Sequence record: NC_106597.1
From: Escherichia phage BB1
DNA: 64,000 nt
Reading direction: 5' to 3' (one strand)
The number at the start of each line of letters is the position of its first letter. Position 1 is the first letter of the stretch. Both the position numbers and the translations under genes were made by a program. Below are positions 13,787-58,443 of this stretch, in pieces. The notes under the pieces are model-generated. The model was not told where the DNA came from, made no database searches, and worked only from the letters and a program-made list of their open reading frames with translations.

Positions 13787-15605
13787 GACACTAAAATTTA
13801 GTAACGTTATGTCTTACGGTAAGGACATCGTAATTCATTTCGATAAGAATCCAGTTACTCAACTAATTGGTGGCAATGGGCTAGGGAAATCCACCATTGC
13901 TACTGTTATTGAAGAACTATTTTATAATAAGAACTCACGCGGTATTAAGAAAGATGCTCTGTTCTCTTGGTCTTCTCCGAAAAAAGAGTATGATATGCAC
14001 GCTTATTTCTCGAAAGATGAAGATGAGTATGAACTGCATAAAGTAGTTAAGTCAACTGCTAAAGTAACTCTTATTAAGAATGGGGAAGATATTAGTGGAC
14101 ACACGGCAACCCAAACATACAAGATGATTGAAGAGATTATGGGTGGTGACTTCCAAACATTCACCAAACTAATTTATCAATCAGTGGGTTCCAATCTAGA
14201 CTTTCTAAAAGCAACAGATGCAACACGTAAGGCTTTTCTTGTTAACTTGTTCAATCAAGAACAGTACAAAGAAATGTCAGAAACTATTAAGGCTGACCGT
14301 AAAGAAATAGCAAATACCTTAAATAATTTGCAGGGCCAAATGGCTGTAATTACGAAAATCCTTAATGGAAAGAATAACTTGGGAACCTTACAAGAACCAG
14401 TCGAAGTGCCGGAGTTTGATGAAGAGCCATTAGCACAAGAACTTACTGAATCGAAAATTAAGGCGGCATTAGCCAAGTCTCAAGAGGCTAATATTACTAA
14501 ATTGCGTAATTTGGACAAAGCTGTACAAGTTGCCGAACAATCTTTCGAGCCTTTTAAAAATTTGCCTGCGCCCACTGACCAAAACGAAGAGATCTCAAGT
14601 GTTACGCGTGACCTAACGATTGTGACCTCACGTGCGGGCGAAGTTAAGAAACGTTATCAGAAGTTCAAGCAAGAGGCTTCAAATACTGAATGCCCTACCT
14701 GTGGTACTCATCTAGATACAACTGCTGCTCAAAAAGCAATGGATATGGCTAGAACAGAATATGATCCTCTGTTCAAAGAGAAGCAATCTCTTGAAGCTAA
14801 GCTAGAACAGTTGAAGAAAGAACAACTTGAGTATGTTGCGTATACTAGAGCAAAGGATGCTTTGGATAAAGCAGTGGTAGCTAGAGACGAGTTCAAAAAT
14901 TCAATGAGTGATGCTTCTTTTGAAGAACTCAATGTGCAAATCCTACAGGTGCAAATCCGACAATTAGAACAGGAAATCGCTGATGGGCGTTCTAAGGTTG
15001 CAATTGCTAAAGAACATAATGCAAATGTTGAGTTAGCCAATGCAAAATATAAAGCGAAACTAGAGCAGATTGAGAAAGCTGAAGCAGAAATGTCCGAGAT
15101 TACTTCTAAACTGGATGGAGTATCCGAAGCTGTTGCTGATCTCGATATTCTGATTGCTGCATTAAAGAATCTAGTAGGGTATAAACTAGAGCATAGTGTG
15201 AAAGTATTTGAAGAGCTAATTAATAAATACCTTTCAATTATGACTGGTGGTAAATTCGCACTTGGATTTGAACTTGATGAAACAAAATTACAAGTAGTAA
15301 TCTTCAATGATGGAAACCGTACCAGTATGGAGAACTGCTCTACTGGTCAGCAAAGTCGAATTAATCTAGCAACCCTGTTAGCTATTCGGATGCTGTTAAC
15401 ATCTATTAGTAAAGTTAATATTAATCTTCTATTCCTTGATGAAGTAATTAGCTTTATTGATACAAAAGGACTTGATACTCTCGTTGAACTATTAAATGAG
15501 GAAGAGAGTCTAAATTCTATCATTGTTTCTCATGGGCATACGCATCCACTAGCTCATAAGATTACTGTCAAAAAAGATGCAGAAGGATTTTCCTACTTAG
15601 AATAA
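13767..15605 (+). CDS. SbcC/Rad50-like ATPase
   Basis: Walker A GGNGLGKST; long coiled-coil; central CPTCG zinc hook; C-terminal LLFLDEV; start moved to Met26 of track ORF. Confidence 0.75.
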   Translation: MSKITIKTLKFSNVMSYGKDIVIHFDKNPVTQLIGGNGLGKSTIATVIEELFYNKNSRGIKKDALFSWSSPKKEYDMHAYFSKDEDEYELHKVVKSTAKVTLIKNGEDISGHTATQTYKMIEEIMGGDFQTFTKLIYQSVGSNLDFLKATDATRKAFLVNLFNQEQYKEMSETIKADRKEIANTLNNLQGQMAVITKILNGKNNLGTLQEPVEVPEFDEEPLAQELTESKIKAALAKSQEANITKLRNLDKAVQVAEQSFEPFKNLPAPTDQNEEISSVTRDLTIVTSRAGEVKKRYQKFKQEASNTECPTCGTHLDTTAAQKAMDMARTEYDPLFKEKQSLEAKLEQLKKEQLEYVAYTRAKDALDKAVVARDEFKNSMSDASFEELNVQILQVQIRQLEQEIADGRSKVAIAKEHNANVELANAKYKAKLEQIEKAEAEMSEITSKLDGVSEAVADLDILIAALKNLVGYKLEHSVKVFEELINKYLSIMTGGKFALGFELDETKLQVVIFNDGNRTSMENCSTGQQSRINLATLLAIRMLLTSISKVNINLLFLDEVISFIDTKGLDTLVELLNEEESLNSIIVSHGHTHPLAHKITVKKDAEGFSYLE

Positions 15606-17639: not shown

Positions 17640-17677
17640 AAACCCCAGTGGATTTTGTCCACTGGGGTTTCTTTTTA
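17640..17677. terminator. bidirectional terminator between converging early and late transcription
   Basis: CCCCAGTGG-loop-CCACTGGGG with A-run 5' and T-run 3'. Confidence 0.7.
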
Positions 17678-27000: not shown

Positions 27001-27611
27001 AGACTTTCCCTCAAGGAAAGTGAAATACCAGAGTAAGTACCATTGTTATTTAATGTAGAACCAAAAGAATCAGCATTCATTAGCTTAGTTCTAAATAAGA
27101 TACCATTAAAAACTGGTTTTTCACTACCCGTAGTAGTAATAAATAGGTCAGGGTATAAGGATAAGTTCCATACATTTCCTGAGCTAGTAAAATTTGTTAT
27201 TTTATAGACTTTTGGGTGATTGGATAATTTAAATAGATCTCCAGCTTTTGGTAGTCCTGTCAAAGTTCCATTAGTATTTAGTATAATCTGAGAACCTTTC
27301 TGGCCTGCTGGTATAGTAACACTTTTAGTATCACCACGTACTCTAAATGCTTCATACTGAGGTAGAAGTACTTCTAGATAATCTCCAGTTCTTTTATATT
27401 CTAAAATTTTAGAATCTAGGAATGCATATTCATCTGGGAAAAGTTCCGGGTATGAGATATTAATTCCCCAGTATTGAGCAGATATTTTAACCTCTTTGAC
27501 TTTACCATTAGGTAATTCATCACGAATCATAGGGTCATTATCTACTACGTTGACGCTTTCAAAACCTAACCCTGGGTACTCTGGGTTCGTGTATGGATCT
27601 GGTAGTCTCAT
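26997..27611 (-). CDS. distal tail protein (pb9-like)
   Basis: 204 aa; follows tape measure; AGAGGAG RBS. Confidence 0.5.
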   Translation of the reverse strand: MRLPDPYTNPEYPGLGFESVNVVDNDPMIRDELPNGKVKEVKISAQYWGINISYPELFPDEYAFLDSKILEYKRTGDYLEVLLPQYEAFRVRGDTKSVTIPAGQKGSQIILNTNGTLTGLPKAGDLFKLSNHPKVYKITNFTSSGNVWNLSLYPDLFITTTGSEKPVFNGILFRTKLMNADSFGSTLNNNGTYSGISLSLRESL

Positions 27612-27681
27612 AGTTAATTTCTCCTCTTTAATAACAATATTATAATAGTATTGGAAAATTTTATCAAGAAATTTTTATTTT

Positions 27682-27713
27682 TCCATAAAGAAAAGGAGGA
27701 CATAAAGTCCTCC
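27682..27713 (-). terminator. terminator hairpin after tape measure gene (copy 1 of a recurring late element)
   Basis: GGAGGAC-ATAAA-GTCCTCC with U-tract on minus strand. Confidence 0.55.
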
Positions 27714-27720
27714 TCCAATA

Positions 27721-30700
27721 TTACATATTACCAAGAGATTTAAGGGTGGATCCATTCTCATTAAGAGCCAGTTCCACGGCATCTCTTAAAGCAGTGCTGT
27801 TATTCGATGCAAAATCTCTAAAGCTAGCAGCATCCATTGTGCTAATATTCAGAATGATTGGTCTTCCAGAGGTAGTCTTTGATCCATCAGAAAGCTGATC
27901 ATTAGGTGTGGCTTTCATAGGAACCATAGGAGTTACTACTTCGGTACCATGCTCACCCATTTGATAACTAACCCCAGGGTACATCATACCACCTTCAGCA
28001 CGAGGAACAAATGAGTTGGCATTACCAATACCTTTATCACCACGTAGGTAGGATAATTCTCCTGAGCTAGCTTGCATAGATACATCAACGTTCTTCTGTC
28101 GCTCACCTAGGGTTAGGTACTGAGTAGTATCTGCTCCAGAATCTGCAATAGAAGACATACCAGATGCAGAAGATGCTTGAGCAAGAGCTAAGGCACCTGC
28201 TAAACCTGCCGCCACCATCAAAGGAATAGAGAACGGGTATGGTACAGCTGTTGCTGCCTGCATTACTGCCACTGCTGTCTGGATAATAATTTGTTTCTTT
28301 GCTGCGTCTTGCTGGATTTTTAACTTTTCAGCTTCTAACTTTTTCAGTTTAGCTTTAGATGCTTCAGATTTACCATCTCGTTTCTGTTCTGCTGCAATAG
28401 CCTGATCAATTGCACTAACCTGTTGACTAGTACTATATTGAATCATAGAGGCCACAGTCTGCATACCAGAAGCAATCATAGACGTAGTATCTAGAGATCC
28501 CTGTGAGAATTGAATCATAGAGTTAGTTAAATTACCCATGCTTTGAGCTACAGCAGTTGCTTCGGAATTTAACTCAGATAGTTTAGAGATTGCCTGATCA
28601 TATGAAGACATCCTATTCTGCATATCAGCAAAATCTTTATCTGCTCCAGATAGACCAGTTGTAGGAGTATAAGTAGCTCCAACAGAAGAACCTACCTGTT
28701 GCTGCATCTGAGCATTACGTTGTGCTGTTAAAGCTGACATCTGGGCCCTTGTCTTGGCTATTTCGGCATTCCAGCGCATTTGCTCGTTAGCATTACCTTT
28801 GGTAAGTTCTTTCATCTGAGTATAAAAATCTAACTGCATTTCCATTTTTTGCATTTCCCCTGCCAGAGGGAACATGGAAGTTAGAGTATTTTCAAAGGCT
28901 TCTTGCCTTTTACTGGTCATTTCAGCTTGCTGATCCTGACGGAATTTCCATATTTCACGTTCAATTTGGGCTTGAGAACGTCTAGACTGTTCAGCCTCTT
29001 TCTGTTTATCAGCTTGTTTTGTATACCATTCGTACTTCTCTTTTTCAATGGTCAATTCAAGATTTAACTGTGCTAGACGATACTGAGTATCTGTCATAGT
29101 ACGGTTATTTAAGAGAGCTATCTCACGATCTACACCAAGAATTTTATCTGTGTAATCCTTGACCTTCTTCTGAGCTTCCATACCATGATTGGTAAGTTTA
29201 AGTTTCTCCAGCTGAATTTTTTCAATTTCTTTCTCAACAGCTTTATTTCCCTGGTTTGTTTGAAGAACACGGCGTAAAGCAGTTTCTTGCTCTTCTAACT
29301 GTTGCAACTCTAAACGTCTACCAGCTTCCTGAGCTTTTTCCTTATCCTTAGTTTGATTATACACATCAGCTATTTTCTGTTGAACTGCTAACTGATTTTT
29401 AGTTTCATTACCCGTTAGTTTAACGTACTCGGATAAGGCTTGGGAAGCAGTTTTCATCTCAGATAGGGTGTTAAACCCTAAGTTGAGACTTTTAACATAC
29501 TCATCCGCACTCTTACCAGTTCCTGCGGAGAGAGATTCTACATTTCTAATTACCTCTTCAAAAGTTGCACTAGTTTTAGCAGCGGTATCTGTACTACTAG
29601 CTATATTTTGAAAGTCATTAGCTAAATCACTAGCCGTTTTCTTAGTCTGATTATATGCTTTTTGTTGTTCTGTCAGGCTCTTTAGAGCAGCAGAATTAAA
29701 GTCGTATACAGCATCTGGGTCATACACATCTTTCTGTAGATTAATCTGTTTCTGGAACTCTGGATTAGCTTTTGCAGCAGCAGCTCCAGCAGCTTGATAA
29801 GCCGATTTCCAAGCATTGAGGTTCTCTGTAGAATCCTCTACTTCCTTACCAAGTCTAGTTACTTGTAGACCCATAGCCGCTGTTTCTTCTACAAACTTTT
29901 TATTAGCTTCGGAAGCGCCCGCGGCTGCAATACCAACAGGAATACCTTCACCAACTTGACGTATAGCTAGTTTTGTATAGAAATCTGCTTGTTCCATTCG
30001 TTTATCGAACTCAGATTTTAGCTTATTACGCTTATCAAGAGATTCCTTATACATATCTAGAGCTTTATTATAGCCTTCTTCAGAAGCGGCCAAACTTAAA
30101 GCAACAGCACCAACGTTGGTAGGATCTATCTGTCTATTAGTTTTTTCTTGAGCTCTAGCTGCTTCAGCAGATACAGAAGCCTGAGAAGTATAAAATACTG
30201 TGTTGATAGCATCAATTACTGGCCCTAAGTACTTAGCAGCAGCTTGTTGTATTGTTCTTAGTGCAGCATCTGCGTTAGCAGCAAATTGCTCCCACGGAGT
30301 AGCACGTAAAACTTCATCTAAGTAACCAAAACGTTTAGTAGATTCTGCTATAACAGCATTAGCATACGCTTGCTGTTTCTGGAAGGTAGTAAGGCTATTA
30401 ATATTATATGTTATACCCGTGTTTGCAGCATTTAACTGTTTAACGTAATCAGCATAAGCATCGTTAAGACGAATAGTAACACCAAGTTCATCCAGAAGTT
30501 CGATTTCTTGTTTAGATACACCCTTAATTACACGGTTAAGTGCGTCAGTCATATCAACGCCAAGAACAGCAGCAGCACGACGAGCTACTAGACCAAACTT
30601 ATTAAGTTGTTCAGCATCAAATCCATAAGCGGACGCTGAGGATGCTTGTCTCATAGCTTCTTCAAAAGAGATTGCATAGCCAGCTGCCTCTTGCAGTGAT

Positions 30701-31404
30701 CTAGCAAGGGACTGAACAGGAGTACCTGTCTGAGTACCTACTATAACACCAAATTTTTCTAGACGATTTAGCTGATCACCTAGTTTAAGTTGTTCGAATG
30801 CAGATTGCAAAACGAAGATGTTGGAAGCAAGAGCTGCGTACATAATAGGTAAACTACCACCTATCTTAGCCATTGCTGCAAAATCACGAGTTGCACCGCG
30901 TGCTGAACCAGAAGTATTACCAATAGCTCTAGAAGCTCTACCAGCAGCACCAGCAGTATCATTAAAACCTCTAGCTGTACCGCCTAAAACTCTATTGGTA
31001 TCATACAATCTATCTTGAACTTTCTCTGTTGCAGCTGCAACATCATTACCCATTGCTTTAACAGATCTAGAAACTCCATCGAATCCAATTTCTAGTTTAT
31101 CTGTTACTTCAATAAGTTGGATAGCCAGGTAATCTAGCTTATCACCAATACCATCAATGGATTTAGTGATACCAGCCATACCCCTACTAGCTTGCATTTT
31201 AGTAAGACTTTTTGCTGCTCTATCTGCTGCCCTCTCAATGGAGTATAGAGTTCTGGGCATTTTACCTAACTGTTCATTTGTTAGTTCAGAAGCAGCAGCA
31301 GCGTTCTCTAATGCATCAGCTACGTTTTCAATAGACTTTGCAGTACGAGTTGCCCCCTTCTGTTTAACGTCTATTAGTAATTCTCGTATTAGCTTATCAG
31401 TCAT
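27721..31404 (-). CDS. tail tape measure protein
   Basis: 1227 aa, long coiled-coil, Ala/Gly-rich hydrophobic segment near C-terminus; between chaperone-like genes and distal tail protein. Confidence 0.8.
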   Translation of the reverse strand: MTDKLIRELLIDVKQKGATRTAKSIENVADALENAAAASELTNEQLGKMPRTLYSIERAADRAAKSLTKMQASRGMAGITKSIDGIGDKLDYLAIQLIEVTDKLEIGFDGVSRSVKAMGNDVAAATEKVQDRLYDTNRVLGGTARGFNDTAGAAGRASRAIGNTSGSARGATRDFAAMAKIGGSLPIMYAALASNIFVLQSAFEQLKLGDQLNRLEKFGVIVGTQTGTPVQSLARSLQEAAGYAISFEEAMRQASSASAYGFDAEQLNKFGLVARRAAAVLGVDMTDALNRVIKGVSKQEIELLDELGVTIRLNDAYADYVKQLNAANTGITYNINSLTTFQKQQAYANAVIAESTKRFGYLDEVLRATPWEQFAANADAALRTIQQAAAKYLGPVIDAINTVFYTSQASVSAEAARAQEKTNRQIDPTNVGAVALSLAASEEGYNKALDMYKESLDKRNKLKSEFDKRMEQADFYTKLAIRQVGEGIPVGIAAAGASEANKKFVEETAAMGLQVTRLGKEVEDSTENLNAWKSAYQAAGAAAAKANPEFQKQINLQKDVYDPDAVYDFNSAALKSLTEQQKAYNQTKKTASDLANDFQNIASSTDTAAKTSATFEEVIRNVESLSAGTGKSADEYVKSLNLGFNTLSEMKTASQALSEYVKLTGNETKNQLAVQQKIADVYNQTKDKEKAQEAGRRLELQQLEEQETALRRVLQTNQGNKAVEKEIEKIQLEKLKLTNHGMEAQKKVKDYTDKILGVDREIALLNNRTMTDTQYRLAQLNLELTIEKEKYEWYTKQADKQKEAEQSRRSQAQIEREIWKFRQDQQAEMTSKRQEAFENTLTSMFPLAGEMQKMEMQLDFYTQMKELTKGNANEQMRWNAEIAKTRAQMSALTAQRNAQMQQQVGSSVGATYTPTTGLSGADKDFADMQNRMSSYDQAISKLSELNSEATAVAQSMGNLTNSMIQFSQGSLDTTSMIASGMQTVASMIQYSTSQQVSAIDQAIAAEQKRDGKSEASKAKLKKLEAEKLKIQQDAAKKQIIIQTAVAVMQAATAVPYPFSIPLMVAAGLAGALALAQASSASGMSSIADSGADTTQYLTLGERQKNVDVSMQASSGELSYLRGDKGIGNANSFVPRAEGGMMYPGVSYQMGEHGTEVVTPMVPMKATPNDQLSDGSKTTSGRPIILNISTMDAASFRDFASNNSTALRDAVELALNENGSTLKSLGNM

Positions 31405-31419
31405 ATTTTATTTTTCCCA

Positions 31420-31452
31420 ATAAAAAAGGCTCTGGGCAAATCACCCAGAGCC
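31420..31452 (-). terminator. terminator hairpin immediately upstream of tape measure start (copy 2)
   Basis: GGCTCTGGG-CAAATCA-CCCAGAGCC with T6 on minus strand. Confidence 0.6.
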
Positions 31453-31487
31453 AAGCCTCATCGTGGAACGCCCATTGGAGGAAACTT

Positions 31488-31856
31488 TTACCGTGCACGA
31501 GATCTAGCATGTGGCTTAACGTTAGGAATCCTTCCGTTTTGCGGTTTATGCTTCTCGGCACGTTTACGTGCAGCATCTACAGCTTTAGCATCAAATATAT
31601 TGATAATGTGTAGAACAAATTCTTTTTCTATAGGATCAGTAATCCCATAAATATCAAATAAAACACCTAAAGCAGCTTTGTCTTTACCTATAAAAATAGG
31701 AAAGTCACCAGGTATGAAACAGTCAATTAGACTATTATAAATATTCATACTAATAGCTACAATAGGTGGAAAGTCTTCAAGTTCAACAGGCATAGCCTTA
31801 GGATCAGGCTCTATACCCATTGATTCACAAAGTATTAAATATTGTTGTTTAGTCAT
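31488..31856 (-). CDS. hypothetical; possible T-like extension of tail assembly chaperone
   Basis: No RBS; its frame is open for about 29 codons upstream of its ATG, overlapping the 3' end of ORF 31918..32322 in the +1 frame. Confidence 0.35.
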   Translation of the reverse strand: MTKQQYLILCESMGIEPDPKAMPVELEDFPPIVAISMNIYNSLIDCFIPGDFPIFIGKDKAALGVLFDIYGITDPIEKEFVLHIINIFDAKAVDAARKRAEKHKPQNGRIPNVKPHARSRAR

Positions 31857-31917
31857 TTTAGATGCTGAGCTTTTAATACACTTATCTGCAAAATCAGCAA
31901 CAGCATCTAGTAATTCT

Positions 31918-32322
31918 TTACGCTTTTGAGCTACGAAAAGTGTCTAAGTGGAACACTGTCTGGTTGATCCAAGAATCAAACGCGGCGGAGTTCTGCATAA
32001 GCATTACAGCATTATCACGACTAAATGGAACTTCAGTAGCAGGATCAGCATCTGTTTCAATCAGCATCAGTTTTTCAACGTCACCTACAGTCAAACCAGT
32101 CCAACCTTTAATCGCAGCATCAACGAAGGCTTCAATGAACTTATCATCATCCTGTACCTGAATCAAAGTACCGTTAACCCACTCGTCACGCTTAGCAGAA
32201 GTGATAACTCGCTTAGAAGTAGCACGAGACATATAATTAAGCTCTAGCTTAAAGTTAGGCATACCTGGGTATGAAAGGGTGACAGTACGAGTTTCTAGGG
32301 TAATATCTTTTAAGTTAATCAT
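31918..32322 (-). CDS. putative tail assembly chaperone (G-like)
   Basis: 134-aa acidic ORF between tail tube and tape measure genes. Confidence 0.4.
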   Translation of the reverse strand: MINLKDITLETRTVTLSYPGMPNFKLELNYMSRATSKRVITSAKRDEWVNGTLIQVQDDDKFIEAFVDAAIKGWTGLTVGDVEKLMLIETDADPATEVPFSRDNAVMLMQNSAAFDSWINQTVFHLDTFRSSKA

Positions 32323-33218
32323 TATTTTCTTTCTCCAAAGAAGTTTATTTCTACAGGATCTGAATCAGCAGTTGGTATTACATCATACTCTACCTGATAC
32401 AAATCTGAGAAGTTTAGGCGTTTTGAAATACGTGCTAAAGGGAATGTTATAGAAACATATTTATTTTTAATAATTAGTGGAGTTCTTGTTTCCGGGTCTA
32501 GATTCAAGAACTTATCTCCTACCAATCTCTTAACGTAATAGAAAGCTAGCGTTGCGGAAGCATTCATCTCATTGACATAAGCTCGTTTATTAGTATAAAC
32601 TTTATTTATATCAAATATACTTCTATCTTCTCTCCAAGAACATTGTTGCTGGAAGGACATAGATGCTGAAATTAATGCGGGCAATGGCGCGCTATTAGTA
32701 TACACAGCTGGAGGACTATATGGAAGTACTTCACCTTGTGTAATTGTATATCCATCGCGGAAAGTAGATACTTCAGAGAATTTTCCAGACTCAATACCAA
32801 CATTTAGGATCGGTATACTCTTATCTAAAGAAAAATCAACTGTTGATACATAACAGTTTTCGAAATAAATACAGCTATTATTATGATTAATAATATACAT
32901 ATTGAACATAATAGGTTCAATATTGGGAGTATTTCTTGGCAAAAATAAAGAATTTCCCTCACGCGTGAATCCCATCCAATCAAAGAAATTAGATTCAATA
33001 AGCGTAGTACTGAAATTTATTGCCAATGAAATAGATGAAGGATCTTGAGCATTAATAATAGAGTCTGCATAGTTGGTACGATTATGAATAGTACGTCTAA
33101 GAGTTTTAAACTCTTGAAAAGACGTACTAGCATCATAGTTAGAGAGGGCATCGAAATGATACCCTCTACCATCATACTCAATAACTATTTTAGACTCTCG
33201 CATGAGAGAATAAAACAT
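32322..33218 (-). CDS. tail-associated protein (p140-like by position)
   Basis: 298-aa ORF directly downstream of major tail protein. Confidence 0.35.
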   Translation of the reverse strand: MFYSLMRESKIVIEYDGRGYHFDALSNYDASTSFQEFKTLRRTIHNRTNYADSIINAQDPSSISLAINFSTTLIESNFFDWMGFTREGNSLFLPRNTPNIEPIMFNMYIINHNNSCIYFENCYVSTVDFSLDKSIPILNVGIESGKFSEVSTFRDGYTITQGEVLPYSPPAVYTNSAPLPALISASMSFQQQCSWREDRSIFDINKVYTNKRAYVNEMNASATLAFYYVKRLVGDKFLNLDPETRTPLIIKNKYVSITFPLARISKRLNFSDLYQVEYDVIPTADSDPVEINFFGERK

Positions 33219-33222
33219 TTAA

Positions 33223-34617
33223 TTAACCACCTGCTGTTACAGTAATCTGTTTAGTGCCTTTAACTCCAGAACCATCTTTAGCAGTAGCTTCTACAGTTAC
33301 TGCACCAGTTTTACTAACATCTGCTTTTAGTAATCCTGTTGCACTGATAGTAGCTGCATCACCAGCAGTGATAGCCCAAGTAACTTCCTTATTTTCTGCG
33401 GAAGAAGGAGTAACTTCAACACTCATCTGAAGAGTGGCAGAAGTGTTTACTGTAGTAACATTACCCGCAGATTTAACAGTAATTGCAGTTACAGCATCAG
33501 TAGCACCATTACCATTAACAATCAAGTTATTAATAGTTGTTTTGGTATACTTACTAGAGAAGCCTAAGTAACCCTCATCACCTGCATCCAGCTCTGACGG
33601 AATAGCCTTAAACTCTACTGATGTACCAAGTACATCATCAGTCTCAATCGTAGGAATATTAACGTGCGCTTGTTTGGCTACCAGAATAGCTGCAGGACGT
33701 TCATCCTCATACTCGCCACCAAGTACTAGAGCTATTTCGAAGCGGTTAACTACCTTCAGAGTTTTGATAAGATCTTTATACAGTTCCATAGAACCAAGAG
33801 ATTTATCATTCAGATAAGCAGTTAACGAACCAGTTAATTCAAAAGCACCAGTAAAGGAACCAATTGGAATAGTAACACGGGACATTACATTAGGTGTTAG
33901 ATAAGTAATGTTGTTGTTAATAGTAAAAGTACCACCGGTAATTGGTATGTCGTAAGACTTATTGGTATCCATGTCCTTGATCTTAAGGATCGTTAATTTG
34001 TTCTTGATGTAAGAACCCTGGATAGTCATATAAGTTTCATCATCAATACCTATTTCATCTGGGTCAAATGGTTGCTCATCCAGAGGAATAAGCTGATTAC
34101 CATTACCAGACCAAGTTACACGGCCAATATCTTCAATATCAACGTTAACTTCTGCTTGATTAATCTGACAGGAATCGATATAACTCCATGCTTTATCAGT
34201 CAGAATATAAATGTGTAACATTGCTAACTCGTGATAAGAGTTATCTTTGAAGTTAACCATAAAGTTAGCTTCGTTATTGTGTGCCCCCGTATTACCTTCT
34301 AGGTTAATAGCTTTACCACTAGAAAGTGCATGCCATAACATATAGTCAGGAACAATTTGTTTGTTAGTAGTTTTGTCTTTATATGGCAGGATATAGGTAG
34401 AGAAACTCCACTCAGCTGCGTTTAAAGAGTCGTTAAAACGTTTAGAACCACGAGTTGGACGCGGACCAGCCTCATTAACAGTAATATCTGTTGAGTTACT
34501 GTCCTGACCCCAAGAAATATCATCCTGAACTAGAATCTCTTGCGTGTTGGTCTTATTATGACCAGTCTTAACCGTAGACACGAAGATTCGAGTATTACGT
34601 AATAGTTGTAAAGACAT
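33223..34617 (-). CDS. major tail tube protein (pb6-like) with C-terminal Ig-like domain
   Basis: 464 aa; C-terminal Ig-like segment (TVKSAGNVTTVNTSATLQMSVEVTP...VTVEATAKDGSGVKGTKQITVTAGG). Confidence 0.6.
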   Translation of the reverse strand: MSLQLLRNTRIFVSTVKTGHNKTNTQEILVQDDISWGQDSNSTDITVNEAGPRPTRGSKRFNDSLNAAEWSFSTYILPYKDKTTNKQIVPDYMLWHALSSGKAINLEGNTGAHNNEANFMVNFKDNSYHELAMLHIYILTDKAWSYIDSCQINQAEVNVDIEDIGRVTWSGNGNQLIPLDEQPFDPDEIGIDDETYMTIQGSYIKNKLTILKIKDMDTNKSYDIPITGGTFTINNNITYLTPNVMSRVTIPIGSFTGAFELTGSLTAYLNDKSLGSMELYKDLIKTLKVVNRFEIALVLGGEYEDERPAAILVAKQAHVNIPTIETDDVLGTSVEFKAIPSELDAGDEGYLGFSSKYTKTTINNLIVNGNGATDAVTAITVKSAGNVTTVNTSATLQMSVEVTPSSAENKEVTWAITAGDAATISATGLLKADVSKTGAVTVEATAKDGSGVKGTKQITVTAGG

Positions 34618-34643
34618 TTAATTATTTTCTCCTAATCTGTAAC

Positions 34644-35129
34644 TTATCTGCGAAGTGACCTACGTGGAGGCTGATACCTCACTGTTACATTTATTTCTGC
34701 TAAACCATATGGGGCCAGTAGACCCTCATCTGTACTAACTGATGTAATGATCATATCAGTTGCCTCACATGGGAAGGTCGATCCATTAGGTTTACTAACA
34801 GTATATTCTAAATTTCCACCTGTGTCAATAACGGTTTTTATATCCGCTACGAGTTTTTCAAGTTGCTCTTGAATGTCTGTTTTCTCTTTATCGTACACCA
34901 GGATTGGAAGTTCTAAAAACATCCACTGTTGGCCTGAAGGAAGATACTGCCCAGTTTCAGTTCCGATATGAACTGCTACATAAGGAAACTCTCGTATTTC
35001 CTCAAATTTATAGGTTTGACGAGAAACGTTTCCGTATAGATTATTAAAATATTCGTCAGGTTGAGAACCATCCATTTGTTTAGAGATTCGGTCAACCATA
35101 GCTTGTGCAATACTTGTTCTGTGGTCCAT
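34644..35129 (-). CDS. putative tail terminator / tail completion protein
   Basis: 161-aa ORF immediately upstream of major tail gene. Confidence 0.4.
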   Translation of the reverse strand: MDHRTSIAQAMVDRISKQMDGSQPDEYFNNLYGNVSRQTYKFEEIREFPYVAVHIGTETGQYLPSGQQWMFLELPILVYDKEKTDIQEQLEKLVADIKTVIDTGGNLEYTVSKPNGSTFPCEATDMIITSVSTDEGLLAPYGLAEINVTVRYQPPRRSLRR

Positions 35130-35132
35130 TTA

Positions 35133-35900
35133 TTAGGTTCCTTGATTAACCTTAATTTTATATCTGGAGTGAATCAGGTCTCTTGCAGCTTTTGCTATAG
35201 CCTCACCAATAAGTTTTTGTGGGTTTCTAGCGCCAGGATAAGGTCGTAGAGATAATCTTCTGTATGTAGATACTGCCGGATTGAACACAGAATATGGACG
35301 AGTCATATAATTATATGTTACGTTCAATTCAGGGGAGCCTTTACTAGTTTCAGAATCACGAAGCATAACATCTTTAATTTTTAAAGAGTTTGCAAAGCGA
35401 CCGGTCCTAAATTTTAGTGGTGCTCCCGCTTTTTTCATATCCTTTATTAAGTATTCTTTAGCAACTATCTCCAGTATAACCTTCATATTGCTATTAGACA
35501 CGAAACGTCCAGAAGCACCTGTTACTGCACCAGAATATCCATCTTCAACATCACTAGGATCACCAAAATTTACCTGCACTCTACCAGTAGAACGTTTTTT
35601 ACCTACTGAGGATTTTTTACCAGCGGTTGCTTGTATTAAGTTCTCTAGAGCACCTAAATCTCCAGAAAGATCTAAACTAGAGGATACAGCTTTTAATATA
35701 GAAGCTGTTCTAATATTAAGGAGATCTTGTGATACAGGTTTTGAAAACTTAAAAGATACTTGAGCAACAGTACCATCTCTGGTAGGATCTTTTAATCCTG
35801 TTTCAACAGAGTATACAACAGTATTCTTATTGTTTTCAGATCGACTTGCAGTATCTAGCTGCTCTTTAATAATTTGTCTAGCTAGATCAGAAAGAGACAT
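35133..35900 (-). CDS. putative head-tail joining protein
   Basis: ORF in capsid-to-tail junction. Confidence 0.35.
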   Translation of the reverse strand: MSLSDLARQIIKEQLDTASRSENNKNTVVYSVETGLKDPTRDGTVAQVSFKFSKPVSQDLLNIRTASILKAVSSSLDLSGDLGALENLIQATAGKKSSVGKKRSTGRVQVNFGDPSDVEDGYSGAVTGASGRFVSNSNMKVILEIVAKEYLIKDMKKAGAPLKFRTGRFANSLKIKDVMLRDSETSKGSPELNVTYNYMTRPYSVFNPAVSTYRRLSLRPYPGARNPQKLIGEAIAKAARDLIHSRYKIKVNQGT

Positions 35901-36412
35901 TATACTCTCCTATATACTTCAATAATAGTACGAATATGCTCTGGAATACCAGATTTAGTATTATTGAAGGTTACTGTTTCACCACCAATTGTTTTAGCTT
36001 GGCGATAATCTTGTTTGTGCCAATGATCTACTAGCATACATGCTGCAAGTTTGAGATCTTCAGGTATTGGATTGAATCCACCTTGTGTATATGCTACATC
36101 CATATAACCTTCTGGAGGATTAAATTTGAGAAGGATAATACCATCAGAGTATAGCTTATACTGCTCTGGGTCAATCTCATTATCGTTAATCGTCACTTTA
36201 GTTACGGAGGTAGCAGATGGTGAGCTCAGAAAATATTTCCTACGTGTAGGTTTTGTATTGATTAACTGGTCTACCGCATCAGCATCATCCATGCCTAGAA
36301 GGCTCGTGATCAGCGCATTGGCAGCAGTAATCATCATTTCTACACCAGATTCTAATTCAGGTCGTTTTAAACCGCCATATAATCTATAATCTTCGGCTGT
36401 GATGATTTGCAT
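35900..36412 (-). CDS. putative head completion / adaptor protein
   Basis: ORF immediately after the capsid terminator element. Confidence 0.35.
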   Translation of the reverse strand: MQIITAEDYRLYGGLKRPELESGVEMMITAANALITSLLGMDDADAVDQLINTKPTRRKYFLSSPSATSVTKVTINDNEIDPEQYKLYSDGIILLKFNPPEGYMDVAYTQGGFNPIPEDLKLAACMLVDHWHKQDYRQAKTIGGETVTFNNTKSGIPEHIRTIIEVYRRV

Positions 36413-36425
36413 TTATTTTTCCCAA

Positions 36426-36450
36426 TAAAAAAGGAGAGCCGAAGCTCTCC
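36426..36450 (-). terminator. terminator after major capsid gene (copy 3)
   Basis: GGAGAGC-CGAA-GCTCTCC with T7 on minus strand. Confidence 0.7.
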
Positions 36451-36471
36451 TTATCGGCTGAAAAGCCTGTA

Positions 36472-55287: not shown

Positions 55288-55886
55288 GTGCAAATCCGAC
55301 ATTGCTCCATGGGTGTTACGTGCGGGCGTGTATGTGCGAATCCGACAATTTTTGGTAGTGTGCAAATCCGACCCGAAAAATTTTTATAGTGTGCAAATCC
55401 GACAATGAATTTTCCTAAAAACTCCAGCAATCACGAACTGCGTTCGAATCCTGTGGGGTATGTGCAAATCCGACATGGTTTTTCTAGGATTAAGATGTGC
55501 GAATCCGACAAGATTTTTGTGACTTCGATTGGAGGGTGTGTGATTGTGTGAGTTTGGGGAGAAGTTGAAAGAGTGAGAGAAATTTGGGGGAACTGCGGGA
55601 GGGGTGCATGTTTGGTGCGGAGCACCTGATTTGCGGGGATTTTGTGGAAGAGTTGAGAAGATTTGGGTTAATTTGAGATAAGTGCAGATAAAGTAAAATT
55701 TTATTAGCTAAATGGGGCAAAATAGCTTGACAAGTGAAAATTTCTGTGGCTCCAAAAACTCAGGCAATCATGGGCCTTCGGCCCGAAATAATGCTGCCGT
55801 TTTCAGGAGATTATATGTTCCTAAAAACTTAGGCAATTGTGCAAATCCGACCAGTTTTTAAACTCTTGTCAGTGTGCAAATCCGAC
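55288..55886. repeat. eight direct copies of 13-mer GTGC(A/G)AATCCGAC, irregular spacing
   Basis: Copies start near 55288, 55334, 55360, 55391, 55462, 55497, 55839, 55874. Confidence 0.7.
55500..55700. other. C-depleted G/T/A-rich tract (~200 bp) with strong strand asymmetry
   Basis: Almost no C on + strand; GGGG/GTGTG runs. Confidence 0.5.
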
Positions 55887-55926
55887 AGTAATTTCTAGAA
55901 ATGTGTTTTGGAAAAATGTCTTCTAG

Positions 55927-57832: not shown

Positions 57833-58443
57833 TAATTACCTCTCTTATCTTCATTAATAGCAGCTCCCAACGCTTCAAGGATAGTATCACTTATACTCCC
57901 AGGTCTAAGATTATTAAAGTGAGTAACATAGAGGGGACTTTTAAAACCTTCAGCATCCGCAGGTGCTACGCTTCGCATATCAGATTCAAAAGCTTCTTGA
58001 GTATGTTTCAACTGTACAGAAGGGCCGTAATCTTCCCCAAACTTATATGACTTCGTACTACTTACCACACCCCCACAAGGAACATTGTGCATATCCGACA
58101 TTAACCTTTTATCGGAGTTACTCAGCATTGAGATTGTCCCTGACTGCCACGGATCTCTAATAGTTACAGGAGTACTAGGACGGTTAACCTCAGCCTTCAC
58201 TAGTTTGTATCCTGCATCGATCAGTGCATTAATCAGGTTATCAGCCGGGATGCGAGCCGTGCCAAAAATCTTACGAGCATCTTCGAGCTTACCTTCAAGA
58301 TCTTTACATGCTCTAAGGTCAGTGTGTGCAAATGTTAGCTTCATAGATTTGAGTTGTATAGTAGCAGTTAAATCTTTAAAGCTATAATCCCATGTGTTCA
58401 GTTCATGGTCTGGTACTACTTGAATAGGTTGTTGTGTAAACAT
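57832..58443 (-). CDS. hypothetical protein
   Basis: ORF in co-oriented early operon. Confidence 0.45.
   Translation of the reverse strand: MFTQQPIQVVPDHELNTWDYSFKDLTATIQLKSMKLTFAHTDLRACKDLEGKLEDARKIFGTARIPADNLINALIDAGYKLVKAEVNRPSTPVTIRDPWQSGTISMLSNSDKRLMSDMHNVPCGGVVSSTKSYKFGEDYGPSVQLKHTQEAFESDMRSVAPADAEGFKSPLYVTHFNNLRPGSISDTILEALGAAINEDKRGN

Follow-up and report, generated by a model that had tools for sequence, protein, structure and literature searches.

Phage T5 offers the closest described counterpart of the locus analysed here. Its RefSeq record labels three sites as putative rho-independent transcription terminators (NC_005859 101563–101586, 96553–96587 and 92087–92113), places promoter P-G25 (92013–92087) directly after the third and annotates another promoter, P-J5, inside the tail-terminator-protein gene. 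By primer extension, P-G25 and P-J5 are late promoters, their transcripts being seen at 30 min of infection, and the host sigma-70 RNA polymerase serves all T5 gene classes (PMC7472727). We analysed the orthologous sites in Escherichia phage BB1 (NC_106597.1), in a stretch of 64,000 nucleotides that we refer to as the window. An earlier note, made from the sequence alone, had described a ~40-bp element, consisting of a hairpin, a U-tract and an A/T-rich tail, that recurs at three late-gene junctions on the minus strand: after the major capsid gene (site 1), before the tape measure gene pb2 (site 2) and after pb2 (site 3). We conclude, with a probability of about 0.78, that the three elements are intrinsic terminators splitting a T5-type late operon into dosage blocks, and that the repeated tail is a terminator U-tract joined to a translation initiation region at two of the sites and the upstream A-block of P-G25 at the third.

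Minus-strand GC-rich hairpins followed by T-runs are directly visible at each site (36452–36424, 31452–31419 and 27716–27685). At site 1, the capsid stop codon is followed by terminator 1 (T1; 36452–36431), a 9-bp stem capped by a TTCG tetraloop (AAGGAGAGC-TTCG-GCTCTCCTT), and then by TTTTATTGGGAAAAATAA and an ATG (36412–36410). Terminator 2 (T2; 31452–31428), located 3′ of the tail assembly chaperone open reading frames (ORFs), consists of GGCTCTGGGT-GATTT-GCCCAGAGCC with a 5-nt loop, and is succeeded by TTTTTTATTGGGAAAAATAAAAT and the tape measure start codon (31404–31402). Terminator 3 (T3) begins 4 nt past the pb2 stop codon (27723–27721); its arms GGAGGAGGAC and GTCCTCCTTT enclose a 5-nt loop in the arrangement GGAGGAGGAC-TTTAT-GTCCTCC (27716–27692, including the first Ts of the run), and TTTTCTTTATGGAAAAATAAAAATTTC comes next. 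The stems measure 9, 10–11 and 10 bp, the loops 4–5 nt, and the U-tracts (TTTTTTATT at both T1 and T2, TTTTCTTTAT at T3) contain U at 8 of 9 or 8 of 10 positions. All three elements are intergenic, lie on the coding (minus) strand and start 4–36 nt past a stop codon. Fold calculations give hairpin energies of −18.5 (T1), −20.3 (T2) and −15.4 kcal/mol (T3), with shuffle z-scores for the hairpin regions of −3.2, −2.6 and −3.3 at sites 1, 2 and 3, respectively, and a consensus scan of the minus strand between 20 and 40 kb ranks T1, T2 and T3 within the top four terminator-like sites. A search of the 64-kb window against Rfam 15 returned no match at the gathering threshold, and lowering the threshold to E values up to 10 for the 27.5–36.6 kb region yielded chance-level matches only (E ≥ 0.1).

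The three hairpins are conserved well beyond the closest relatives of this phage. Over the 10 kb around the sites, T5-like phages match the window, Salmonella phage PS3-1 being the best (97.6% identity) and T5 reaching 93%. Hairpin and T-run are kept at all three junctions in 28 T5/Eps7-like genomes, and also in the Sugarlandvirus Spivey, in Slocum, in the Novosibvirus RP7, in the Priunavirus PSTCR5 and in the Vibrio phages phi3, Thalassa and pVp-1, which represent three genera of Vibrio phages. In GenBank, both Klebsiella phage Spivey and Serratia phage Slocum have terminators annotated at all three sites, those at sites 1 and 2 being followed immediately by a ribosome-binding site, and the AKFV33 record has a terminator annotated at site 2. 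Junction hairpins are observed in nine lineages with stems that are either different or compensated. At T1, a GC pair has become AT in two of the genomes (L004 and L005), Slocum has gained one GC pair, and the hairpins of the Vibrio phages are entirely different; T2 stems differ by compensatory changes in Spivey, RP7 and phi3. Counts of compensatory pairs from MAFFT alignments, which are not structure-aware, are modest. Conserved junctions with changing stems have the appearance of terminators conserved by function, and the earlier note's view that terminators punctuate the late operon holds: the hairpins and U-tracts are canonical and their positions are conserved family-wide. A small additional hairpin, GGCT-TTTC-AGCC, is predicted by folding between the capsid stop codon and T1 (36456–36467, minus strand), and a GGC-N5-6-GCC hairpin with differing loops is retained ahead of T1 in Spivey, Slocum, RP7 and PSTCR5.

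Among all 40-mers of the 11-kb region, none is better conserved than the site 1 element: in PSTCR5 and RP7, phages with an overall identity of ~55%, its counterparts are 100% and 98% identical. Each base of the 46-nt site 1 segment has a role, as stem, tetraloop, U-tract, Shine–Dalgarno sequence (SD), spacer or start codon. The hairpin itself is not confined to this family, because GGAGAGC-TTCG-GCTCTCC with a T-run recurs in Pseudomonas, Acinetobacter, Erwinia and T4-like phages, where some copies are annotated as terminators. Furthermore, two IMG/VR contigs with flanks unlike those of T5-type phages (L045, 3300021387_001322; L047, 3300021426_000167) contain AGAGAGCTTCGGCTCTCTTTTTTATTGG, whose hairpin, T-run and ATTGG are those found at site 1 in some T5-like phages; a generic terminator is here used convergently. 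Given its recurrence in unrelated phages and IMG/VR contigs, we regard the site 1 hairpin as a generic, very stable UUCG-tetraloop terminator, and we dropped the idea that it is specially recognized.

What the three sites share is the tail. The motif GGAAAAATAAA occurs three times in the window, solely at these sites (0.13 copies expected; none of 100 shuffles reached three), and the 22-mer TTATTTTTCCCAATAAAAAAGG occurs exactly twice against an expectation of 0.01. The 22-nt identity between two copies that the earlier note reported is therefore correct and in fact extends to 23 nt (CCTTTTTTATTGGGAAAAATAAA, sites 1 and 2), with the site 3 copy agreeing at 19 of 23 positions. Its description of a ~40-bp element in three copies needs to be narrowed: hairpin, T-run and tail are all present at three of three sites, but the hairpins are unrelated in sequence and so only the tail is repeated. 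With a shared part of no more than an 11–23-nt tail beside unrelated hairpins, the three sites do not constitute a dispersed repeat or mobile element of the repetitive extragenic palindrome or miniature inverted-repeat transposable element kind.

The distribution of the motif follows the junctions. There are three copies in the window and two in the entire T5 genome, where exact matches are found at sites 1 and 3 only, and the junctions are always the same. For the 28 T5/Eps7-like genomes from IMG/VR, a 20-kb region surrounding the adaptor gene contains GGAAAAATAAA, with one mismatch allowed, almost only at the three junctions. Across IMG/VR, the 14-mer TGGGCGTTCCACGA is present in at least 120 stretches; among the matches listed, only 23 that are immediately preceded by CCTCC, each with flanks of the T5 type, looked genuine, and we presume the others listed to be chance occurrences. 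A look for the motif ahead of other late genes gave none: it is absent upstream of the other 19 ORF starts examined, most of which have ordinary GGAG-type SDs. Conservation in relatives is thus confirmed for the 28 T5/Eps7-like genomes, but the site 3 wording is lost in more distant ones.

The motif leads straight into a start codon at sites 1 and 2, giving GGGAAAAATAA-ATG at the head–tail adaptor gene and GGGAAAAATAAAAT-ATG at pb2, with the ATG trailing the motif by 0–3 nt. The T1 tail comprises the U-tract (36432–36424), a weak SD, GGGA (36423–36420), and an A-rich spacer (36419–36413); the T2 tail repeats this build, with its U-tract at 31427–31419, GGGA at 31418–31415 and the spacer at 31414–31405. 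In Eps7-like phages the site 2 tail ends in GGGAAAAATAAATG, identical to site 1, and GGGAAAAATAA-ATG stands at both sites. Across lineages, the invariant parts at sites 1 and 2 are a T-run, (A)TT or TAT, GG(G/A), 4–9 A-rich bases and the ATG, and in Vibrio phages the position of the enteric GG-element is occupied by GGAG or GGAGG. In duplex calculations with the 16S rRNA 3′ end, no other stretch of the 20 nt ahead of the AUG pairs better with the anti-SD than the GG-element does; this applies to both sites and to every lineage, with the GG-element always 4–9 nt from the AUG. The window's duplex, UGGGAA, is weak (−4.2 kcal/mol) and lies 6–9 nt from the AUG (6 nt at site 1). Anti-SD energies at sites 1 and 2 range from −3.3 to −4.2 kcal/mol in enteric phages and from −5.5 to −10.6 kcal/mol in Vibrio phages, and those of the window's high-copy capsid, pb6 and distal tail protein (Dit) genes range from −6.6 to −9.1 kcal/mol. 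Both sites consequently carry a recognizable SD initiation region, and the adaptor start methionine does not vary in the protein alignment.

Variation in T5 points the same way. There, an endonuclease gene is inserted directly past CCTTTTTTATT and the motif is lost, pb2 instead having CAGGAAAACATTAG-ATG with a GGA-type SD, and T5 gene D3 starts behind GGAAATATAAAATATG, which is nearly the same initiation region but is not preceded by a terminator. A consensus scan found no sigma-70 hexamer pair with at least 9 of 12 matches 3′ of sites 1 and 2; the best hexamers found by eye, TGCAAA-17-TATAGA, are without the conserved final T, and we dropped a promoter at these sites. On the strength of the SD pairing, T5 pb2, D3 and the lack of promoter hexamers or of room for them, the tail at sites 1 and 2 reads as a U-tract fused to a weak initiation region, and the shared CCTTTTTTATTGGGAAAAATAAA appears to be no more than the terminator U-tract plus the initiation region from which the following gene is translated, with no separate signal. 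The earlier proposal of a dedicated signal common to the three sites finds no support in this comparison, since the invariant part at sites 1 and 2 comes down to GG(A) placed 4–9 nt from the ATG.

Site 3 is built differently. Its U-tract TTTTCTTTAT (27694–27685) and the following GGAAAAATAAAAATTTC together span 27668–27694 on the minus strand and occupy the UP-element position, as an upstream A-block, of P-G25, whose core TTGATA-17-TATAAT (27639–27667) drives the Dit gene and the genes downstream. The hexamers match the consensus at 11 of 12 positions, and a sigma-70 promoter was recognized at this site alone among the three. The Dit gene starts at an ATG at 27611–27609, preceded by the SD AGAGGAG (27627–27621). 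The site 3 motif corresponds to positions 4–14 of the annotated 75-nt P-G25 feature, with the −35 hexamer next to it. In an alignment of 43 annotated 75-nt T5 promoter features, a TAAAAATTT block is conserved just 5′ of the −35 hexamer; the P-G25 sequence ATAAAAATTTC-TTGATA fits this consensus, and the 3′ half of the site 3 motif is the A-block. T5 promoter P31B has 15 nt in common with P-G25 (GAAAAATAAAAATTT), the longer version being confined to these two promoters. The terminator–promoter module at site 3 is kept in nine of nine lineages compared, with TATAAT invariant; in distant relatives the GGAAAAATAAA wording is gone, yet a terminator, an A/T-rich stretch and a consensus promoter still follow one another. 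These comparisons indicate that the A/T motif at site 3 is the A-block in the upstream part of P-G25, a known late promoter of the ordinary sigma-70 type. The earlier suggestion that the A/T motif might be a late promoter accordingly has something to it at site 3, where the motif lies inside P-G25, but finds no support at sites 1 and 2, where no −35/−10 pair follows. The ribosome-binding region past P-G25, ATTAAAGAGGAGAAATTAACTATG (27609–27632, minus strand), is one that we take to be RBSII of the pQE/pDS vectors. The same string stands letter for letter in 13 papers whose titles suggest vector or primer sequences.

The gene order around the three sites makes sense of their positions. The minus strand carries every gene between 17 and 45 kb, in the T5 order. 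The major capsid gene pb8 (37848–36472) is followed by T1 and then by the genes for the head–tail adaptor (36412–35900), the neck protein and the tail terminator protein. Inside the last of these, a consensus scan identifies a P-J5-type sigma-70 promoter, TTGACA-17-TATACT (34800–34828, minus strand), at the place where T5 has its P-J5 annotation. The tail tube gene pb6 (34617–33223), a minor tail protein gene and two chaperone ORFs lead up to T2, beyond which lie pb2 (31404–27721, a 1,227-residue ORF), T3 with P-G25, and the tail-tip genes, beginning with the Dit gene (27611–26997) and continuing with pb3, pb4 and the fibre gene. T1 and T2 each follow genes for abundant proteins and precede genes for proteins made in few copies, and it is the latter that have the weakest SDs.

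This layout fits leaky termination that lowers the low-copy adaptor and tape measure proteins after the high-copy capsid and tail tube proteins. Because the pb2 ATG lies 23 nt past the T2 hairpin, there is no room for a promoter of its own and expression must come by read-through; the adaptor gene, too, lacks its own promoter behind T1, so that T1 and T2 must be leaky. Under this model, only RNA polymerase that reads through T1, after the high-copy capsid gene, would reach the low-copy adaptor and neck genes, and P-J5 would restore high transcription for pb6. T2, after the chaperone ORFs, would leave the tape measure gene to read-through transcripts only, T3 would close the tape measure unit, and the strong late P-G25 would restart transcription for the tail-tip genes. 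The weak SDs (GGGA/GGA) of the adaptor gene and pb2 would add a translational reduction to the transcriptional one. The attenuation before the tape measure gene that the earlier note proposed thus stands as far as the missing promoter and the implied read-through are concerned, whereas partial termination and a protein stoichiometry set by it are what we infer.

A further conserved feature, a 29-nt non-coding block, TTTCCTCCAATGGGCGTTCCACGATGAGG (31484–31456, minus strand), separates the chaperone stop codon from the T2 hairpin. Its core, GG..TTCCACG, is invariant in nine of nine lineages, from E. coli to Vibrio phages, and block plus hairpin show an identity of 95% or more in 438 of 542 phage records. 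We considered and rejected several roles for the block. A coding extension or read-through peptide is out, as indels of 1–2 nt in T5, Spivey, phi3 and the Vibrio phages break all frames and the frame of the block relative to the upstream stop codon varies among phages. A repeated DNA site or an antisense target is out as well, the block being single copy with no reverse-complement match, and its predicted pairing with the SD is inconsistent among lineages. A comparison of the block with Rfam matched no family.

Several observations weigh against terminators and initiation signals as a full account of the locus. They leave the block upstream of T2 unaccounted for, and function alone does not obviously require either the 23 identical bases at two sites or a 46-nt site 1 element that hardly changes when overall identity is ~55%. 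The SD is weak, and conservation of the tail may partly serve terminator tuning, RNase E cleavage or S1 binding. The literature searched contained no transcript 3′-end or read-through data for the three sites, so that termination efficiency and the stoichiometry argument are inferred. On one alternative reading, the hairpin and AU-rich tail would be chiefly an mRNA processing and stability module, possibly acting alongside termination. RNase E favours AU-rich single-stranded sites beside stem–loops; cleavage in the U/A-rich tail would leave the upstream capsid or tail-tube mRNA protected by its hairpin and give the downstream message a 5′ monophosphate and a shorter life. An AU-rich single-stranded segment does lie directly past a stable stem–loop at three of three sites, and the tail is conserved beyond the apparent need of a weak SD. 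However, nothing in these features is specific to cleavage, a U-tract plus an initiation region explains the same features fully, the site 3 sequence is DNA-level promoter context and we found no experimental data. We consider this possibility unlikely, and the earlier note's suggestion of a processing signal finds no support at sites 1 and 2. An independent cis-signal, TTATTGGGAAAAATAAA, deliberately placed after late terminators and recognized by a factor of the phage or the host, seems to us very improbable, whether it served as a late-promoter element, as a site for an activator or antiterminator, or as a translational operator. It would suit the exact number of copies, three, each past a late terminator; the near-palindrome TTATT-N6-AATAA; conservation in 28 of 28 T5/Eps7-like genomes; and the still unresolved mechanism of T5 late-gene control (PMC7472727). 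It sits poorly with the downstream context, which is not common to the sites (two have an ATG at +0 to +3, the other a −35 hexamer), with the loss of the site 3 version in distant relatives (Slocum GCCCGCTAATAAAA, phi3 ACCCAAAAAC), whose sites 1 and 2 retain only the T-run, GG and A-rich spacer, and with the viability of T5, which has no motif at site 2. Moreover, two genomes (L021 and L025) show GGG→AGG with a 3-nt insertion, promoter hexamers are absent 3′ of sites 1 and 2, and the known late promoters are ordinary sigma-70 promoters. Hardly any credence attaches to the notion that the repeated tail is a functionless relic of duplication or gene conversion between junctions. Sites 1 and 2 do share 23–25 identical bases in T5- and Eps7-like phages, but the adjoining hairpins are unrelated, hence no module was duplicated, and the tails persist at ~55% overall identity. 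That the two tails vary independently within one pattern in Spivey, Slocum, RP7 and PSTCR5 (for instance GGGT versus GGGA/GGA) speaks for a shared constraint rather than for gene conversion.

The block upstream of T2 raises the possibility of a riboregulator, in which the block, through its core UUCCACGA, would pair with the tail across T2 and either cover the tape measure SD on read-through transcripts or modulate termination. The block is non-coding with a core that is invariant family-wide, the predicted core–tail pairing probability is 0.88 in Thalassa, 0.60 in Slocum and 0.32 in the window, and the Vibrio tail, UCGUAUGGAG, differs and yet is complementary to ACGA..CC. On the other hand, the predicted probability falls to ~0–0.1 in RP7, PSTCR5 and Spivey and to 0 in T5, where the tail is replaced, RNAalifold gives only three long-range pairs with a covariation term near zero, and the independent lineages are too few for statistics. 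We consider such a riboregulator improbable. We hold it similarly improbable that T2, the block and the SD-containing tail form a Demerecviridae cis-regulatory RNA that sets the amount of tape measure protein, the invariance of the tail reflecting recognition by a common factor; if it were true, the RNA would act through regulated read-through or SD masking, possibly answering a phage protein such as the chaperones. Intrinsic terminators dividing the operon into dosage blocks remain our preferred explanation of the three sites.

Some neighbouring features deserve mention in their own right. Neither the window nor the majority of T5-like phages has a gene in the slot between T2 and the start of pb2. 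In T5 this slot holds a 250-residue endonuclease, T5.141, with CapR and zinc-finger domains (NC_005859 95777–96529; L001 7378–8130), and in Vibrio phages an ORF of ~250 residues without a Pfam match (L042 16013–16774; L033 16048–16803). Because it is filled in these phages and empty elsewhere, the slot looks like an insertion hotspot; homology between T5.141 and the Vibrio ORF is not supported (BLASTP E = 20). Upstream of T2, in the region 31488–31918, a 122-residue ORF (31856–31488, minus strand) lacks an SD and starts 61 nt past the stop codon of a 134-residue ORF, and homologues of the two are annotated as overlapping in Vibrio phage Thalassa. The two ORFs are probably a frameshifted chaperone pair of the G/GT type. 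At the end of the fibre gene lies a strong bidirectional terminator (17642–17672; −21 and −24 kcal/mol on its two strands), the counterpart of the T5 ‘efficient bidirectional terminator’ annotated at 81641–81680. Elsewhere in the window, the 14-mer GTGCAAATCCGACA (up to two mismatches, plus strand) is present in 11 copies against 0.38 expected, located at 55288–55887, 14934–14962 and 58087–58100; eight of them fall within 600 bp at 55.3–55.9 kb, and this cluster may be linked to the repeat-rich injection-stop region of T5. We found no tRNA genes in the 64-kb window.

Partial termination as a means of setting gene dosage has precedents in the bacterial host. In the E. coli rplL–rpoB and rpsU–dnaG operons, a partial intrinsic terminator between high- and low-copy genes sets the transcript ratio. 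Unlike the phage case, where the next ribosome-binding site is fused to the U-tract, these host operons have had their efficiencies measured and their regulation worked out. T-phi of phage T7, the nearest analogue for which measurements exist, is alike in being a hairpin terminator directly past the major capsid gene 10 that is deliberately leaky, tail genes downstream still being transcribed; its native efficiency is reported as 62% (PMC9157156). It differs in acting on T7 RNA polymerase, with read-through measured, whereas T5 uses the host sigma-70 RNA polymerase. The generic UUCG-tetraloop terminators of unrelated phages are without the GGGAAAAATAA-ATG continuation and the capsid/adaptor context, and the build of site 3 is that of T5 terminator–promoter modules (18607/18550, 24513/24443, 27219/27162 and 55694/55708), an arrangement met often in the T5 early region.

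The closest described counterpart remains T5 itself, whose sites 1 and 3 are identical to those of the window or nearly so and whose site 2 hairpin is the same. It differs in that T5.141, between T2 and pb2, replaces the GGGAAAAATAAA tail; in the window, T2 abuts the pb2 start. The terminators and P-G25 have long stood in the T5 reference annotation and the idea of leaky terminators setting dosage is standard, and the finding is in essence already known. What our analysis adds is that the three-terminator layout spans Demerecviridae, from E. coli to Vibrio phages, that the weak ribosome-binding sites of the low-copy adaptor and tape measure genes are fused directly to terminator U-tracts, and that the slot between T2 and the tape measure gene took up unrelated extra genes in T5 and Vibrio phages. 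These comparisons may be of use in engineering T5-like phages and in interpreting their transcriptomes.

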